Positions 24,218 through 33,512 of a DNA stretch of 50,158 bases are shown here, one piece after another. The DNA comes from Escherichia phage LHE71. The notes beneath the pieces are model-generated. The model saw nothing but the letters and a program-made list of their open reading frames with translations. It did not search any database and had not been told where the DNA came from. A program made the position numbers and the translations under genes. The stretch is from sequence record OP455115; one strand, 5' to 3'. The number at the start of each line of letters is the position of its first letter. Positions within the stretch are counted from its first letter, which is position 1.

Positions 24218-26002
24218 ATGGCTTTATACAGACGCGGTACAGCATCAATGGATGCAGACGGAACGGTTCACGGAACCGATACAAAATGGAAGGATCAGCT
24301 TGCTCTGATTCGCGTAGGTGCAACTATCGTTTTCCTTGAGCAACCAATTAAGCTGGCTGTGATTAGCGATATCGTTAGCGACACCGAATTAAAGGCTATC
24401 TCTACCGACGGTCAAACGGCTGATAACGGTAAGTATGTGATCCTACTTAACGATTCACTGACTGTAAACGGCTTAGCTCAAAACGTCGCTGAGACGCTTC
24501 GATACTATCAAAGCAAAGAGACTGAGATCGCGGCAGCTATAGACCTGATAAATCAGCTTGATATGAATAAACTTGAGCAAATTGTTGCTGAGGTGAATCA
24601 GGCAAAATCTGATTCTCAATCTGCGAAAAACCAGGCTGAATTAGCGCGTGACGCAGCTAACGCCGCGCGTGATGAGACTAACTCAATCAAGAACCAGGCA
24701 CGGCAAATTGTTGACGGGGCAGTCGGTAGCATCAATGCAGCAAAAGAACAAGCGATCACAGATGTAGGCTCTAAAGAATCAGCGGCGATTACGCACATCG
24801 ACACGGAAGAGAAAGCAGCCATTAAGGCAATCAATGACGCAAAAGGAGATCTGTCAGGTTACGTTAACGACGCTCAGACGGCGGCGCAAACTGCAACCTC
24901 AGCAAAAAACGGTGCCAATTCGGCAAAAGAAGCTGCGGTTAAAGCTAAAGATGAGGCGGCGGTAAGTGCTAAAAAAGCGAAAGACGCAGCTAATAGCATT
25001 AATGCCGATAATCTTTTAACTAAGGATGGTAATCTCTCCGGTCTTGTGAACAAAAAAGAGTCTAGAAGAAATATTGGGTTAGGTGAAAATGATGCTGTTA
25101 ACTTTCTTACTATTAACACCACGGGTGCTATAGGTGCAGGAAGGAACTCATGGGACGGTTCTGGCTGGGGTAGTCAGTCCATATTGTCATCATTGATGAT
25201 TATGTCACCTGATGGAATATCCATACCAGGGATTTACGTCAGAACAGAACATGGCGATAATGGTTATGCTGGAACTTTATTATTTTATGAGAGGGCAAAC
25301 TACTTCGAGACTAACAATAGATTTAGAGCCAATCAGTTTTTATGCCAGAGAACATCTATGGGTTATAACCAGATGTGGTCTGCCTCATGCTTTCAGGGAA
25401 ATGCTTACACCGCTGATAGTGGTGTTGAAAACTATCAATCGCTTATTGCTGGATCGTGTGATACGATGGGTCAAGGGTATGTTGGCGGCGTAGCTTTTGG
25501 CATGATGACTACGGGCAATCCTGAATGGCCCAGGGCACAAATATCAGTAGGTGCTCAAGATAGGGATGGAGCAGGCAATATTGGTCTGCAAATGCATTTC
25601 AGGTTTATAGCTTCAGGGCAAATATCTTACTCTGGACCTCAAGGGGCTGGAAGTTTCCAACAGGTTCCGGCATCTGACAGAAATATAAAGCACAGCATAA
25701 AGGATGATGAATCAAGCATTGCATACAACAACATAAAATCAATGAGATTTAGGAACTTTATATTTAACGATGATGAGCAAGAAAGGGTAAGGAGAGGTGT
25801 TATAGCTCAGGAGATAGAAGAGATCGACAATCTATATGTTAAGAGAAGGGTGTATGAGAGCCACGAGCTAAACGGGCCAAAAGTTGAAAGGCTTGAGCTT
25901 GATACAACTCCTTTATTGCTTGACACTATGAGAGCTTTACAGGATACAATAAAGAAAGTTGAAGAGTTACAAGAAGAGATAAAAATGTTGAAGTCCAAAT
26001 GA
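24218..26002 (+). CDS. Tail fibre protein with C-terminal intramolecular chaperone (peptidase S74-like) domain
   Basis: 594 aa; Ala/Lys-rich coiled-coil repeats centrally; C-terminal SDRNIKH...IAQEIEEI segment resembles the autoproteolytic chaperone domain. Confidence 0.7.
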   Translation: MALYRRGTASMDADGTVHGTDTKWKDQLALIRVGATIVFLEQPIKLAVISDIVSDTELKAISTDGQTADNGKYVILLNDSLTVNGLAQNVAETLRYYQSKETEIAAAIDLINQLDMNKLEQIVAEVNQAKSDSQSAKNQAELARDAANAARDETNSIKNQARQIVDGAVGSINAAKEQAITDVGSKESAAITHIDTEEKAAIKAINDAKGDLSGYVNDAQTAAQTATSAKNGANSAKEAAVKAKDEAAVSAKKAKDAANSINADNLLTKDGNLSGLVNKKESRRNIGLGENDAVNFLTINTTGAIGAGRNSWDGSGWGSQSILSSLMIMSPDGISIPGIYVRTEHGDNGYAGTLLFYERANYFETNNRFRANQFLCQRTSMGYNQMWSASCFQGNAYTADSGVENYQSLIAGSCDTMGQGYVGGVAFGMMTTGNPEWPRAQISVGAQDRDGAGNIGLQMHFRFIASGQISYSGPQGAGSFQQVPASDRNIKHSIKDDESSIAYNNIKSMRFRNFIFNDDEQERVRRGVIAQEIEEIDNLYVKRRVYESHELNGPKVERLELDTTPLLLDTMRALQDTIKKVEELQEEIKMLKSK

Positions 26003-28277: not shown

Positions 28278-28586
28278 TGCGTTTATCTCCTTCGTTTACG
28301 ATAAATCCATTATAGCCATTAACAGCGTTTAGTCAATCGAATACATGTAATTGGTGTGTAATTGCGTGTCTATATTGCTCAAGTTACAACCAGCATCAGC
28401 AGAATCAATGTCTTAAGTCGATTTTTATGCACTGTATATTGCGTAACACTTGTAACCGCTTTTTCTTAGAAATACAGAGATACCTACAAATAGAATCCAC
28501 ATTGATTAAATTTTGAACATACATGATAGAAATTTTACGAATCAATCAAATCACCTGTTACACGATAGACAACTGTTACACAACAA

Positions 28587-28650
28587 TAATTATATATATA
28601 AAGCTAAAATTAAATATTATCTATCTATATATATTATATAGAGTTTTTAC
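28587..28650. repeat. AT-rich (TA)n tract in second divergent control region
   Basis: Near-pure A/T with TATATATA runs, flanked by GTTACAC-type short repeats. Confidence 0.55.
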
Positions 28651-28803
28651 CATATCTACCTGCGGTCGAATGAGGTCGATTTTGTAACACCTCTTCCAGT
28701 TACAAAAATATACACCTGTTACGCGAAAAAATTGTAATCGCACTATTGCAATAAAAGTAAATGCGACATACAATGCAATCACACTAACGACGAGGACATA
28801 CAA

Positions 28804-29031
28804 ATGAAAAAGTTAATCACCATTATCGCTGCGGCATTCATCCTGACTGGTTGCTCATCGATGCCTGAGCGCACTTGTACGGCAATTTATGAATCAGGCG
28901 GCGCGGAGTACTCGGTTTACGTTTTTGGATCTAAGATGCGCGGAAATGAGATGGTATTGCGTGCTGGATACCCATTCTCCTTCAACTATGTATCAGAGAA
29001 AAACTTCAAATCTCACGATTGCTCGATATAA
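28804..29031 (+). CDS. Small outer-membrane lipoprotein, Cor/Llp-like superinfection-exclusion candidate
   Basis: 75 aa; signal peptide with lipobox LTGC; lies next to the distal tail genes. Confidence 0.5.
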   Translation: MKKLITIIAAAFILTGCSSMPERTCTAIYESGGAEYSVYVFGSKMRGNEMVLRAGYPFSFNYVSEKNFKSHDCSI

Positions 29032-29053
29032 AAGAAAAGCCCCGAAAGGGGCT
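29030..29053 (-). terminator. Rho-independent terminator
   Basis: Stem AGCCC/GGGCT followed on the minus strand by TTTCTTTT; end of the late operon. Confidence 0.55.
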
Positions 29054-29742
29054 TAGTCGTATGCTGCCGTTTTGATTGCTGTTATAATATTTCCATTATT
29101 CGTTGTGTTCATTATCTGACCTGCCGCAGTGGTTGCTGCTGCATTTATTCTCGTTGTGCTCCCGTTGTACCTGCATGAACTGCCTGCTGTTGAGTTTCCT
29201 ATTATTGGTTGCCCAGTTGGCAACCTGCCAATAACAACTTGATAGTTGCCAAGTATAGTTGGAACAACCGCGTAGCTTCCGCTGAGTGTTGTGTCTATGT
29301 TTAATCCACCGCCAGCGTATCCAGGAGTGCCGATTGTAACCAAATCACTAAGGACCTTTGTCTCATTTGTCAACACTAGCTTTCCTGACGCATCCCATAT
29401 TGCCATACCCCAGCTAGGTAGTGACTGCTCAAATATGGCAAATATGTAGTATGTTAGCGTGTATGATTGGTTTGCTGGATTTGTCCCCCTTATATAAACA
29501 GTTCCAACATTGGGTCCGCTTCTGAAAGTAAAGGCTGAAAGCGCGGTCCCCTGCTGCGTGTTTGTTGTTTTGCAAAAAGCTATAACCGGAACACCTGTAG
29601 GTATCCGAACATATCTCTCTGCAACCTGCGAACCACTAACATTTACTGATTGAATTTCCCCTCTCGCATATAAAGCGAATGGCGTTGATAACGGGGTTAT
29701 GAATGGGTTTCCGTTTACATCTATAAAAGCACCGTATGACAT
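29053..29742 (-). CDS. Distal tail protein, receptor-binding candidate
   Basis: 229 aa Gly/Thr/Asn-rich beta-type sequence downstream of J. Confidence 0.4.
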   Translation of the reverse strand: MSYGAFIDVNGNPFITPLSTPFALYARGEIQSVNVSGSQVAERYVRIPTGVPVIAFCKTTNTQQGTALSAFTFRSGPNVGTVYIRGTNPANQSYTLTYYIFAIFEQSLPSWGMAIWDASGKLVLTNETKVLSDLVTIGTPGYAGGGLNIDTTLSGSYAVVPTILGNYQVVIGRLPTGQPIIGNSTAGSSCRYNGSTTRINAAATTAAGQIMNTTNNGNIITAIKTAAYD

Positions 29743-30047
29743 TAATCATTCTCCAGATATGCTATTAAGTAACAGTTTGATGATGGGTACACGTTTGGCC
29801 CAGGTGAGTTTGTTGGCGTTACTGTTATCGTATTACCGCTAGCAATAATTTTCCTGCCAGGCCCACTAATGGCGCCATCGTCAAGGCTTATAACGTAGTT
29901 CACATGCATACCAGGAGGCACTTGATAGCTGAACGATGCTGAATTCTGGCCTGCTGACAAAAAGTTCCAACCAACAACCGTAACAGGCTTAATCCCATAG
30001 TTATTATAAACGCCATTTGCGTCCCAAGTTGATATACCGTACGCCAT
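29742..30047 (-). CDS. Tail-associated protein
   Basis: Start at MAYGISTW with SD GGAGGA; shares WDA(S/N)G motif with 29053..29742. Confidence 0.4.
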   Translation of the reverse strand: MAYGISTWDANGVYNNYGIKPVTVVGWNFLSAGQNSASFSYQVPPGMHVNYVISLDDGAISGPGRKIIASGNTITVTPTNSPGPNVYPSSNCYLIAYLEND

Positions 30048-30092
30048 AATAAATCCTCCAAAAGAAAAGGGCATCTCTCGATGCCCTTGATA

Positions 30093-33000
30093 TTACCATG
30101 AGCCAGTCAACCTGCCAATCTGAACCCTCAGGCGACCACTCGAATCCCTAACAGATATTGTGGTATTAGTTTGCTTCATCGCACCCTCACCATCACTTCC
30201 GTAGTTTTCAAATGTACCTCCCTTGTCAAGTCTCCAGCCAGCCTTGTTAACGACATAGTTATTCGATTGAATAACATTACCAATCATCGCATTCGTGATG
30301 AATCCGTTCTTAATGATGGCACTATTAAGAATCACCTGATTACCTTCAACAACAAAAGGGTACTGAGTCTGACCATTCATCCCTGTCATGATTGCAAATC
30401 GTGATGCCTCAAACAAAATCTGCGCCTTAACCGCAGCTCCGGAACCAATCAGAGACATAGCCATGCCTGCACTGTATTCTTGGCCGTTATACTTCAGACC
30501 GAGCTTGATGCCGTACATTGCACCAGTCGAATCCGCATTGCTCCACGAGTCAAGTTTTTGAGAAAGTGCTGCCTCATTATTCCCAAGCCTCGCGCTTAAC
30601 GACAAGTCAGCTTGCGTTCTCGCCTCAGTCTCGTTTGCTATAGCCTCTCTGATATCAGTCAAACTTGCCTGGATATCATCACCAATCTCTGCCTTGAGTT
30701 GGTCAATTTCACGCGATAGCGCTCCAGTCTCAGTTGCGATAACTTCACGCAATTCGCTGTTGCTAGCGCTAATCTGATCGCCAAAACTTGCCTTCAATTG
30801 CTCGATCGCCGTCACTCGTGCCTGCGTCTCATCAGTAATAAGTTTCAGTGATTTCGTGTACTCAGCTTTTCGTTTTCCGTTCTCCTTCTTCATGTATATC
30901 GCGTCTTTGTCATTGGCGAGCGCGTTTTCTATTACTGCCTCTGCGTTAGCTGCGTTCTGCGCCGCGTTGTCGGTTGCGTTATCAACAAGCCACTCGTAAC
31001 CAGGCGAGTTTTCGATATCGACAGAAATCTCCCCAATGATATCGTCAACGTTTGTTGATGCCATACCTCTGACAAAATCAGTCCACTGAGACACGTTACC
31101 GATCCTATCAACCGTCCTTACCCGATACCACACAATATTCCCTCCAGGCATCGGTGAGTGATAATACTCATGCTGCGGGTACGGAATCAAAGAAAGCAAA
31201 CTTGCGTTATCCACTGTTCCATCTGGCGACTGTTGCAACTCTGTATAGGCCGTATCTCCAGAACCATCAGAGAATCCCCATTTTGTACGGATACCAAAAA
31301 CAACATCATCCGTAGCTGTAAGGTTAATCGGTCGACCCGGCTCTCCTTGCTTGCCTGTCAACGTCGCTGCGACGATATTTGACCAGCCGGAAGTTGTACC
31401 AGAACCAGCAACGGAGCGAACGCGAACCTGATAGTTTCCAGCGTAAATACCTTCAACGTATACCTCTTTGTTTGCTGTCTGCGGTACATTTTGCCAGTTG
31501 CCATTATCCTTTCGCCACTGTACGTCATAGAAAACTGCGTACGGAACTTTATCCCAGCTAACAATCATCGTTTCTACGCTCATCCCCTGGACGATTCTCG
31601 ACTCTGAGGACACCTGCACGTTTTCCGGTCTAGGGATCTGATCTGGCTCAACGATGCTCGTCGGTCGGTCGTCGATATTAACTCCGTAATCAATCTCATC
31701 GTACTTGTTAGGATCGTACTCCACCGCCGTGATTTTGTAGGTAAATTCCTCATCATCATCGCCCTTATCGATTTTTGTCACTACGTACTGCTGTAACGCA
31801 ATGTCGGTGCGGTCGATAGCGAATACCGTGTTAGGCTTCACAGGAAATCCAAAGCCAATGTTAACCTCTATAGTCTTACCATCCGCACTAACACTTGAGA
31901 TTGTGCGCTTCACGGGCTTGCCATCTGGCTTATTTACGATAATAAAGTCACCCGCGCGTGCATCCACCCGGAACGGCAAGAAAATCTGACTACCGGATAC
32001 TTCGAGCAAGCGCCCTGATAGGTTCATCGTCAAGTTACTTGACCAGAAGTTATCAGCTATTGCCACAACATCTCCGATTGTCGGGATCATGCCCTCAAGC
32101 CCGGTAGCGAAGTTTACCGTGGTGCTGCGGAGGTTAGTTTTCAGAATCCATCTCCCGCGTCGGTTGGCCTCACTGCGTCGGGTACATCCGATTGCTGTAA
32201 TACTGGTTACGTTGTTCCCGAACCGCAGAGTAGCCTCTCGATCGAATACTGGCTCAACGTCCTGTTGATACATGTTTTGCTCATCATCAAACATCACGTT
32301 ACACGTCGTGTACATGCTTTTCTCGCTTGCAAACGTGTAGGAGAAGTCTCCATTAACAACGTTGTCGTTCGTGAAGATGTACGCAGGTTCACGCGGTCTG
32401 TCGATGATTACAGAAATGCTTTCACCATTCCAAAAGCTCATTCCTCGGAATATTGAGCAAATGTCTCGAATCACTTTGTACGCATCAGTTTGTGACTGAA
32501 TTATCACATCGCAAAGGTAGCGAGGCTCAGTTCCACCCTTTCCATCTGGAACCATCTGATCGCAATATTGCGCAGCCTCATAGAGCGCCCATTTATCAAC
32601 GGAGATTCCAAGCTCTTTCTGATCCAGTCCATAACGCTGATTAATCATCAGGTCATAAAGAACCCACGCCGGATTATTAGTCCACGCCTTCTTGAAAGTT
32701 CCATCCCAATTGCCGTTATAGGTTCTCGATTCAGGGTCGTAATTCGATGGAACGTTAATAATCTTCCAGCGCTTACGAATTGAGATCGTAGGTAGTTGAT
32801 TTGGGAACATTTTCGAATCAAACTCGACAAAAAGAAGACCAGTCAGGGGATAACGGAACTTGGCATCTATAACCTCAGCGTAGCTTTTTACCTGAATTGC
32901 ATCGACAACGTTTGAGTTATCAGAGTCTGGAGTCTTTCTAACAATCCTGAATATCACTTGGTTATTGAAGTTTGGTAAGTTTATTCGACGACTTCGATCG

Positions 33001-33512
33001 TAACCAGACATTGTTTTTCCTTCAATTACGTCAGTGAGAACAGTCTCAAACGAACCACCATCAACCGCTTGCTGCACTTCGTACTCAACGCGTACGCCGT
33101 TTTTATCACCGTTGCTTTCAATTCGTACGCCTCGAGGCATAAACATTTTGATACGGATTGCCGAAAGCGTTTTGTTGGTTACTGAGATCGTGTACGGGTT
33201 ATCTGTAGTAACCTCACGGTTTACAGTTACCTCACTAGAGCTATCTTCCATCCCCTTGATATATTCCTGAGTCTGCGTCCCCGGCCTGAACTCAGCCTTT
33301 ACCCCTTCAAAGTTGAACGATCCATCCTCGTTTTGCACCGGGACTGAGTTAAACATCAGTTGCTTTAGGCTGAATGTTTCGTCAATTTCACCATCAGATA
33401 TTGCTAACAGGATCTTAATCTTGTTGATTGAGATCAGGTTATCTTCCATTTCTTGTGGTTTGTGAGGCTTTGGTGAACCACCTTTCGATCCGCTTATCAC
33501 TTTTTGAATCAT
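30093..33512 (-). CDS. Tail tip / host specificity protein J-like
   Basis: 1139 aa; N-terminal region aligns by eye with lambda J; C-terminal coiled-coil and fibre-like region. Confidence 0.85.
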   Translation of the reverse strand: MIQKVISGSKGGSPKPHKPQEMEDNLISINKIKILLAISDGEIDETFSLKQLMFNSVPVQNEDGSFNFEGVKAEFRPGTQTQEYIKGMEDSSSEVTVNREVTTDNPYTISVTNKTLSAIRIKMFMPRGVRIESNGDKNGVRVEYEVQQAVDGGSFETVLTDVIEGKTMSGYDRSRRINLPNFNNQVIFRIVRKTPDSDNSNVVDAIQVKSYAEVIDAKFRYPLTGLLFVEFDSKMFPNQLPTISIRKRWKIINVPSNYDPESRTYNGNWDGTFKKAWTNNPAWVLYDLMINQRYGLDQKELGISVDKWALYEAAQYCDQMVPDGKGGTEPRYLCDVIIQSQTDAYKVIRDICSIFRGMSFWNGESISVIIDRPREPAYIFTNDNVVNGDFSYTFASEKSMYTTCNVMFDDEQNMYQQDVEPVFDREATLRFGNNVTSITAIGCTRRSEANRRGRWILKTNLRSTTVNFATGLEGMIPTIGDVVAIADNFWSSNLTMNLSGRLLEVSGSQIFLPFRVDARAGDFIIVNKPDGKPVKRTISSVSADGKTIEVNIGFGFPVKPNTVFAIDRTDIALQQYVVTKIDKGDDDEEFTYKITAVEYDPNKYDEIDYGVNIDDRPTSIVEPDQIPRPENVQVSSESRIVQGMSVETMIVSWDKVPYAVFYDVQWRKDNGNWQNVPQTANKEVYVEGIYAGNYQVRVRSVAGSGTTSGWSNIVAATLTGKQGEPGRPINLTATDDVVFGIRTKWGFSDGSGDTAYTELQQSPDGTVDNASLLSLIPYPQHEYYHSPMPGGNIVWYRVRTVDRIGNVSQWTDFVRGMASTNVDDIIGEISVDIENSPGYEWLVDNATDNAAQNAANAEAVIENALANDKDAIYMKKENGKRKAEYTKSLKLITDETQARVTAIEQLKASFGDQISASNSELREVIATETGALSREIDQLKAEIGDDIQASLTDIREAIANETEARTQADLSLSARLGNNEAALSQKLDSWSNADSTGAMYGIKLGLKYNGQEYSAGMAMSLIGSGAAVKAQILFEASRFAIMTGMNGQTQYPFVVEGNQVILNSAIIKNGFITNAMIGNVIQSNNYVVNKAGWRLDKGGTFENYGSDGEGAMKQTNTTISVRDSSGRLRVQIGRLTGSW

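Follow-up and report, generated by a model that had tools for sequence, protein, structure and literature searches.

The window analyzed here comprises 50,158 nucleotides of Escherichia phage LHE71 (sequence record OP455115). On its plus strand an ORF with an ATG start (28804..29031) encodes a prolipoprotein of 75 aa (MKKLITIIAAAFILTGCSSMPERTCTAIYESGGAEYSVYVFGSKMRGNEMVLRAGYPFSFNYVSEKNFKSHDCSI), here referred to as Cor. A Shine-Dalgarno motif (GAGGA, 28792..28796, plus strand), read directly from the sequence, is located 7 nt 5' of the ATG, and in the T1 record AY216660 a ribosome-binding site is annotated at the equivalent position.

As stated in the first-pass annotation, the lipoprotein gene is opposite in strand to the distal tail genes and adjoins them. 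It is convergent with an ORF of 229 aa (29053..29742, minus strand), which lies downstream of an ORF of 101 aa (29742..30047, minus strand) and of the gene of a J-like central tail fibre or tail tip protein of 1139 aa (30093..33512, minus strand; Pfam Phage_Tail_Tip, FNIII-A_GpJ and Phage-tail_3). The 229-aa protein is the equivalent of T1 ST31 and N15 gp23 (228 of 229 residues identical to T1; PHROG 425, E 1.6e-67) and the 101-aa protein that of T1 ST32 and N15 gp22 (100 of 101 residues identical to T1). In the mechanical ORF list the ST32 homologue begins nine codons earlier at 30074 (110 aa, 29742..30074, minus strand). The match to PHROG 557 starts at residue 10 of this 110-aa ORF, which together with the T1 annotation backs the start at 30047 and a protein of 101 aa (MAYGISTW...).

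The N-terminus of Cor reads MKKLITIIAAAFILTGC up to the end of the lipobox at Cys17 and continues with two serines. It represents a textbook type II signal peptide, composed of an n-region with KK, a hydrophobic core and the lipobox L-T-G-C including Cys17. The signal peptide covers aa 1–16, the lipobox LTGC aa 14–17 (28843..28854, plus strand), and the codon of the predicted lipidated Cys17 is found at 28852..28854 (plus strand). This leaves a mature protein of 59 aa. The Pfam model LPAM_1 scored 20.1 bits and thereby reached its cutoff of 20. The earlier description of the gene product as a 75-aa lipoprotein with the lipobox LTGC was thus confirmed. The cysteine is preceded by MKKLITIIAAAFILTG and followed at position +2 by a serine, which is compatible with sorting to the outer membrane. 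Position +2 was occupied by S or A and never by D in all homologues compared. Judging from these sequence features, Cor is predicted to be exported, lipidated on C17 and, with Ser at +2, sorted to the outer membrane by the Lol system. Additionally, C25 and C73 probably form a disulphide.

For the analysis of conservation 20 close relatives of Cor, sharing 59–97% identity, were obtained from a large protein collection. G16, C17, C25, C73 and the stretch A54-G55-Y56-P57 were invariant in all 20 homologues, and F58 was kept in at least 90% of them. The three cysteines C17, C25 and C73 as well as the AGYPF motif including F58 were also present in the more distant Cor proteins of the phages BrunoManser, herni, HK022 and N15. 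Comparison with cor of phage herni gave a dN/dS of ~0.3, with dS near saturation. The residues invariant among the 20 homologues, their retention in HK022 and N15 and the dN/dS of ~0.3 argue that cor is under selection and more than a chance ORF.

The DNA from 28300 to 29800 was 97.5% identical to coliphage T1 over the full length of the stretch and 94–96% identical to about two dozen further genomes of Tunavirus. Within the first 25 kb of the window, other Tunavirus genomes matched with ~91% identity across ~82% of the length, and the genome is therefore that of a T1-like phage which is distinct from T1 and carries a T1-type tail-tip/cor cassette. The first-pass annotation had proposed a Cor/Llp-like receptor-blocking lipoprotein of a T1-like phage, and the gene turned out to be cor itself. 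The protein shared 74 of 75 residues with T1 Orf30/Cor (AAP49969 / YP_003915), the sole change being K48N. It matched the NCBIfam equivalog NF047972 'phage exclusion lipoprotein Cor' (lamb_exclu_cor) with 57.5 bits against a cutoff of 31 (residues 1–73) and PHROG 1119 'Cor superinfection exclusion protein' with an E-value of 2.8e-30 (residues 1–74), and it is located in the cassette J-ST32-ST31-cor. The corresponding ORF of T1 is recorded as Orf30 or ST30 and labelled either 'lysogenic conversion protein Cor' or 'Cor superinfection exclusion protein'. The protein is with certainty a member of the Cor family.

Pfam does not contain a family for Cor or Llp. The model PF24052 'Phage_lipoprotein' reached 18 bits with Cor, below the cutoff of 27, and T5 Llp, HK022 Cor and N15 Cor were likewise without any Pfam match above cutoff, yielding sub-threshold LPAM_1 and chance matches only. 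PF24052 was therefore dropped as a criterion of membership.

The distribution of cor was analyzed together with that of ST31. By tblastn against a phage collection, cor was detected in 227 records and ST31 in 349. The counts per genus (counts were compared, not record lists) were 176 and 177 for Escherichia, 22 and 22 for Enterobacteria, 8 and 8 for Shigella and 4 and 4 for Salmonella phages, respectively. The surplus of ST31 was contributed mostly by Klebsiella phages, where the 75-aa cor query may be too divergent for detection. Three records labelled as C. jejuni phages (MG065637, MG065641 and MG065679, 'Campylobacter phage' A15b, A14a and A13a) contained homologues of Cor (55–57% identity) and ST31 that are typical of Drexlerviridae coliphages. 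These records probably reflect coliphage contamination or wrong labelling.

Phages commonly encode small lipoproteins, and the weak secondary matches of Cor in PHROG and Pfam involve only the signal peptide. Both points would suit an unrelated lipoprotein, such as the outer-membrane part of a spanin or a generic moron, that merely lies beside the tail genes. However, the match above the NF047972 cutoff extends over the full length, the protein is 99% identical to T1 Cor, which confers resistance to T1, and the record counts of cor per genus are the same as those of ST31, the protein of the FhuA-type locus. Furthermore, the lysis modules of T1-like phages use a u-spanin and are located elsewhere in the genome (PMC13164509). 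The family match and the identity to T1 Cor rule out a spanin or generic lipoprotein, to which we assign practically no probability. None of the results obtained contradicted the identification as cor.

T1 is the closest described counterpart of the locus. Both phages share the promoter-like site, the ribosome-binding site, the convergent orientation, the hairpin terminator and the neighbours ST31, ST32 and J. They differ by K48N in Cor, by the C-terminus of the lateral tail fibre and by one repeat, which the J protein of the present phage has fewer. J was 95% identical to T1 J and lacked exactly one C-terminal coiled-coil repeat unit of 33 aa (REVIATETEALSREIDQLKAQIGDDIQASLTDI) near residue 921, resulting in 1139 instead of 1172 aa. 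The lateral tail fibre (24218..26002, plus strand, 594 aa) was 78% identical to T1 Orf26 (728 aa) within its N-terminal 288 aa, whereas the C-terminal ~300 aa were unrelated to T1 Orf26. The presumed glycan-binding end has been exchanged as a module.

The Cor proteins of phi80, N15, HK022 and mEp167 belong to the same family (PHROG 1119, lamb_exclu_cor). They share the lipobox, the two further cysteines and AGYPF, and their genes occupy the same site after the homologues of J, gp22 and gp23, but they are only ~35–38% identical to the present Cor. This group is cited as the one in which inactivation of FhuA and exclusion of both T1 and phi80 were originally demonstrated.

The gene order J, gp22-like, gp23-like and cor was common to T1, BrunoManser (Sertoctavirus), herni (Tempevirinae), HK022 and N15. 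The orientation of cor varied with lifestyle. In the three Drexlerviridae examined and in the present phage the gene is inverted and convergent with the tail genes, whereas in the temperate phages HK022 and N15 it is co-directional with them, counts as a moron or lysogenic-conversion gene and is expressed from the prophage. The llp gene of T5 forms a divergent (head-to-head) pair with the receptor-binding gene pb5, and an early promoter is annotated for it. The notion that receptor-blocking lipoproteins of T1-like, phi80 and T5 phages are encoded at this position applies to the T1-like phages and, in co-directional arrangement, to N15 and HK022.

A hairpin (AAGCCCC-TTTC-GGGGCTT, 29037..29054, minus strand) is located between the convergent stop codons and overlaps with that of the 229-aa gene. 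RNA folding of segments of 56–60 nt containing the hairpin gave -14.6 kcal/mol for the plus and -15.5 kcal/mol for the minus strand. A U-tract follows the hairpin only on the minus strand, that is the strand of the tail genes (UUUUCUUUUAU), whereas the cor strand continues with AGUCGUAUGC and has no U-tract. The terminator scan called the hairpin on the minus strand only, and the T1 records contain a rho-independent terminator at this site which is annotated on the tail-gene strand. The assumption of a shared terminator hence holds for the G+C-rich hairpin, which both genes have in common, but not for the canonical U-tract, which belongs to the tail-gene strand alone. A second, weak terminator-like hairpin was found at 29126..29142 (plus strand), ~95 nt past the cor stop codon and antisense inside the 229-aa gene (GCAGTGGTTGCTGCTGC followed by ATTTATTCTC). 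It might halt read-through from cor past the shared hairpin, which lacks a U-tract on this strand, or it may be a chance match.

Upstream of cor a consensus scan revealed a candidate sigma-70 promoter (TTGCAA, 17-nt spacer, TACAAT; 28746..28774, plus strand) with 9 of 12 matching positions. It ends ~30 nt before the ATG and is identical in T1. Promoter-like sites were not enriched in the region, with 6 found versus 3.8 expected. The cor upstream regions of BrunoManser and herni were searched as well. They have a -35-like element GCACT(T)TTTGC(C/T)A in common, but the closest -10-like hexamer is 21 nt away from it, and due to this spacing a promoter common to these phages could not be defined.

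The intergenic region between cor and recE (28278..28803, 526 bp) is shared with the divergent recE operon and has a G+C content of 32%, compared with 45% for the whole window. It contains eight GTTAC/GTAAC motifs versus ~1.0 expected (Poisson P ~1e-5), which is the densest cluster of the window. A perfect inverted repeat (TTTTGTAAC-N10-GTTACAAAA) is located at 28680..28707 and precedes the -35 hexamer of the promoter-like site of cor by ~40 nt. Furthermore, three direct copies of CA(C/A)CTGTTAC(A/G)C were found at 28552, 28570 and 28713. T1 carries the same eight GTTAC motifs and has kept both arms of the palindrome, while three positions of the spacer differ. Two GTTAC motifs were present in BrunoManser and none in herni. 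The motifs represent a candidate operator array. For the T1 promoter PrecE, repression by Pir and cAMP-CRP has been reported (PMC6737242). Neither a published binding motif nor an explanation of the GTTAC array was found in the literature. One could speculate that this Tunavirus-specific array is an operator of the T1 regulator Pir, which would tie cor into the phage circuit rather than leave it a constitutive moron, but we consider this unlikely. If true, the shutdown of the receptor would be coupled to the lysis/carrier-state switch reported for T1.

The locus downstream of J has been described to determine the specificity for the terminal receptor in Drexlerviridae and their relatives (PMC8594841; bioRxiv 2026.04.02.716166), and the receptor-binding role of the ST31-type protein is taken from the same two reports. 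The T1-type allele of this locus goes with FhuA, and the cognate exclusion lipoprotein adjoins it (PMC8594841; bioRxiv 2026.04.02.716166; PMC13164509). From the presence of cor together with ST32 and ST31 proteins that are 99% identical to those of T1, FhuA is the predicted terminal receptor of the present phage.

The effect of Cor on infection is known from experiments with related proteins. Overexpression of T1 Cor rendered the T1-susceptible E. coli strain ECOR-4 resistant to T1 (PMC6737242). This is the expression test that the first-pass annotation had proposed. The Cor proteins of phi80 and N15 inactivate FhuA. For T5, Llp was demonstrated to bind the periplasmic side of FhuA and to close its extracellular loops (PMC9586334). 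The authors of the Llp study expect the same mechanism for Cor, which is ~20% identical to Llp, disulphide included (PMC9586334).

Llp of T5 (PDB 8A60 chain B) resembles the present Cor in several respects. It is a small outer-membrane lipoprotein that forms a small beta barrel and targets FhuA, and its gene is located on the opposite strand beside receptor-binding genes. Unlike Cor, it lacks AGYPF. Its sequence similarity to Cor is marginal outside the signal peptide, and its gene is arranged head-to-head with pb5 under an annotated early promoter rather than tail-to-tail. Moreover, pb5 was described as structurally distinct from the receptor-binding proteins of the Drexlerviridae and of independent origin (bioRxiv 2026.04.02.716166).

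Profile comparisons link the two lipoproteins to a varying extent. T5 Llp (AY587007, 2501..2734) matched PHROG 1119 over its full length with an E-value of 1e-19, and in a search of the PDB with the Cor profile T5 Llp was the best match (8a60_B, E 0.007). A single-sequence search of the PDB with Cor retrieved spurious designed repeat proteins aligned to residues 10–41, i.e. the signal peptide and the N-terminal part, and was disregarded. Direct alignment of Cor and Llp by hhalign gave a probability of 93.6% (E 2e-7) when the signal peptides were included, but only 2.8% (E 0.016, 35 columns) for the mature proteins. Since the match collapses without the signal peptides, the former value is largely an artefact. 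Both proteins share the pattern Cys1, Cys9-11 and a C-terminal Cys (mature numbering). Close homologues of Llp in the phages HK6 and slur09 (records PP724615 and NC_028840) are publicly labelled 'Cor'.

The AF2 model of Cor was based on a shallow alignment, as only 20 close relatives (59–97% identity) were available. It showed a small beta barrel of five strands with a pLDDT of 76.5 overall and 85–91 over residues 21–70, and is confident only there. When the PDB was searched with this model by Foldseek, Llp (8a60_B) ranked 48th (TM 0.43/0.50, rmsd 3.5 A, 50 columns, 20% identity), among Tudor- and chromo-like small barrels, and there was no match at E<=0.001. In the BFVD the Cor homologue was followed mostly by lipoproteins or receptor-blocking proteins (E 2e-3 to 5e-2) from Yersinia phage phiR2-01, the Escherichia phages DT571/2 and slur09, Providencia phage PSTCR5 and Proteus phage Stubb. 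At least two of these sources, DT571/2 and slur09, are T5-like, and phiR2-01, PSTCR5 and Stubb are presumably T5-like as well.

Published predictions are in line with a common mode of action. In an AF3 model a T1-like Cor docked to FhuA from the periplasmic side, at the site of Llp, with an ipTM of 0.84 after removal of FhuA residues 1–70, and the model of the T1-like Cor compared to Llp with a TM-score of 0.69 (PMC13164509). A preprint of 2026 predicted the same architecture for Llp and the Cor proteins of T1, phi80, mEp167 and HK022. The view that the present Cor works like Llp has good but indirect support, and homology of the two proteins is plausible.

A different action is conceivable, in which Cor blocks FhuA-dependent phages without the 1:1 periplasmic lock known from Llp, either by involving other outer-membrane proteins or by changing FhuA indirectly. 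The title of Arguijo-Hernandez 2018 was counted for a role of other outer-membrane proteins in the action of Cor, and according to the 2026 preprint, how Cor works at the molecular level is still to be elucidated. The marginal similarity of the mature proteins and the unspecific fold ranking in the PDB point in the same direction. On the other hand, Llp and Cor fall into one PHROG (1119) and have the cysteine pattern in common, and in the published AF3 and structure predictions T1-type Cor occupies the site of Llp on FhuA and has the same fold. We therefore regard an action unlike that of Llp as improbable.

A further exclusion lipoprotein of the same phage family, Rtp45 of phage Rtp (PDB 9RPS), is likewise encoded beside the post-J receptor-specificity locus (PMC12685063). 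However, it targets LptDE and acts by steric displacement of loops rather than by allostery in a TonB-dependent transporter (PMC12685063). Rtp45 (9RPS) was not retrieved from the PDB by the Cor profile at E-values up to 10.

Taken together, we are highly confident that the gene is cor, encoding the superinfection-exclusion lipoprotein of a Tunavirus (T1-like) phage. The proposed action, an inactivation of FhuA, is as follows. Based on its orientation and the promoter-like site, cor would have a promoter of its own and be transcribed in opposite direction to the late tail genes, so that an expression independent of these genes would be possible. As suggested by the lipobox, the precursor would be exported, lipidated on Cys17 and cut by signal peptidase II. 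The disulphide C25-C73, predicted from the invariant cysteines and the model, would staple the small five-strand beta barrel. By analogy to Llp and according to the models, the mature protein of 59 aa would bind the periplasmic face of FhuA, the receptor of the neighbouring ST32/ST31/J module, and lock it in a state which the phage tip cannot bind, as structurally shown for T5 Llp. Infected cells and the envelope fragments released by lysis would then cease to adsorb T1-like and other FhuA-dependent phages. As a result, competitors would be excluded and the progeny spared. The exclusion itself was shown experimentally for T1 Cor (PMC6737242), whereas a protective value for the progeny is presumed.

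Which of these effects has been selected for may be viewed differently. With the same molecular action, the main role of Cor could be to keep progeny from adsorbing abortively to FhuA on the debris of lysed cells and on vesicles, or to make T1 carrier or lysogenic cells immune. Protection of progeny was argued for T5 Llp and repeated for Cor (PMC13164509; PMC12685063). For T1, persistence in the form of an extrachromosomal prophage has been reported, and cor is listed among its lysogeny-associated genes (PMC6737242). The co-directional cor genes of the temperate phages HK022 and N15, with their treatment as moron or lysogenic-conversion genes, would also fit carrier immunity. Neither role is mutually exclusive with the exclusion of competitors, however, and we consider it possible, though the less probable view, that one of them is the main selected role.

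The gene, its family, its position, the exclusion phenotype and the predicted complex with FhuA are already known from published work, and cor of the present phage is in this sense an ordinary member of its family. The finding consequently has little weight as a discovery but is useful for annotation. With respect to the biology of the phage, cells expressing the present cor are predicted to resist T1, phi80, T5 and other FhuA-dependent phages.
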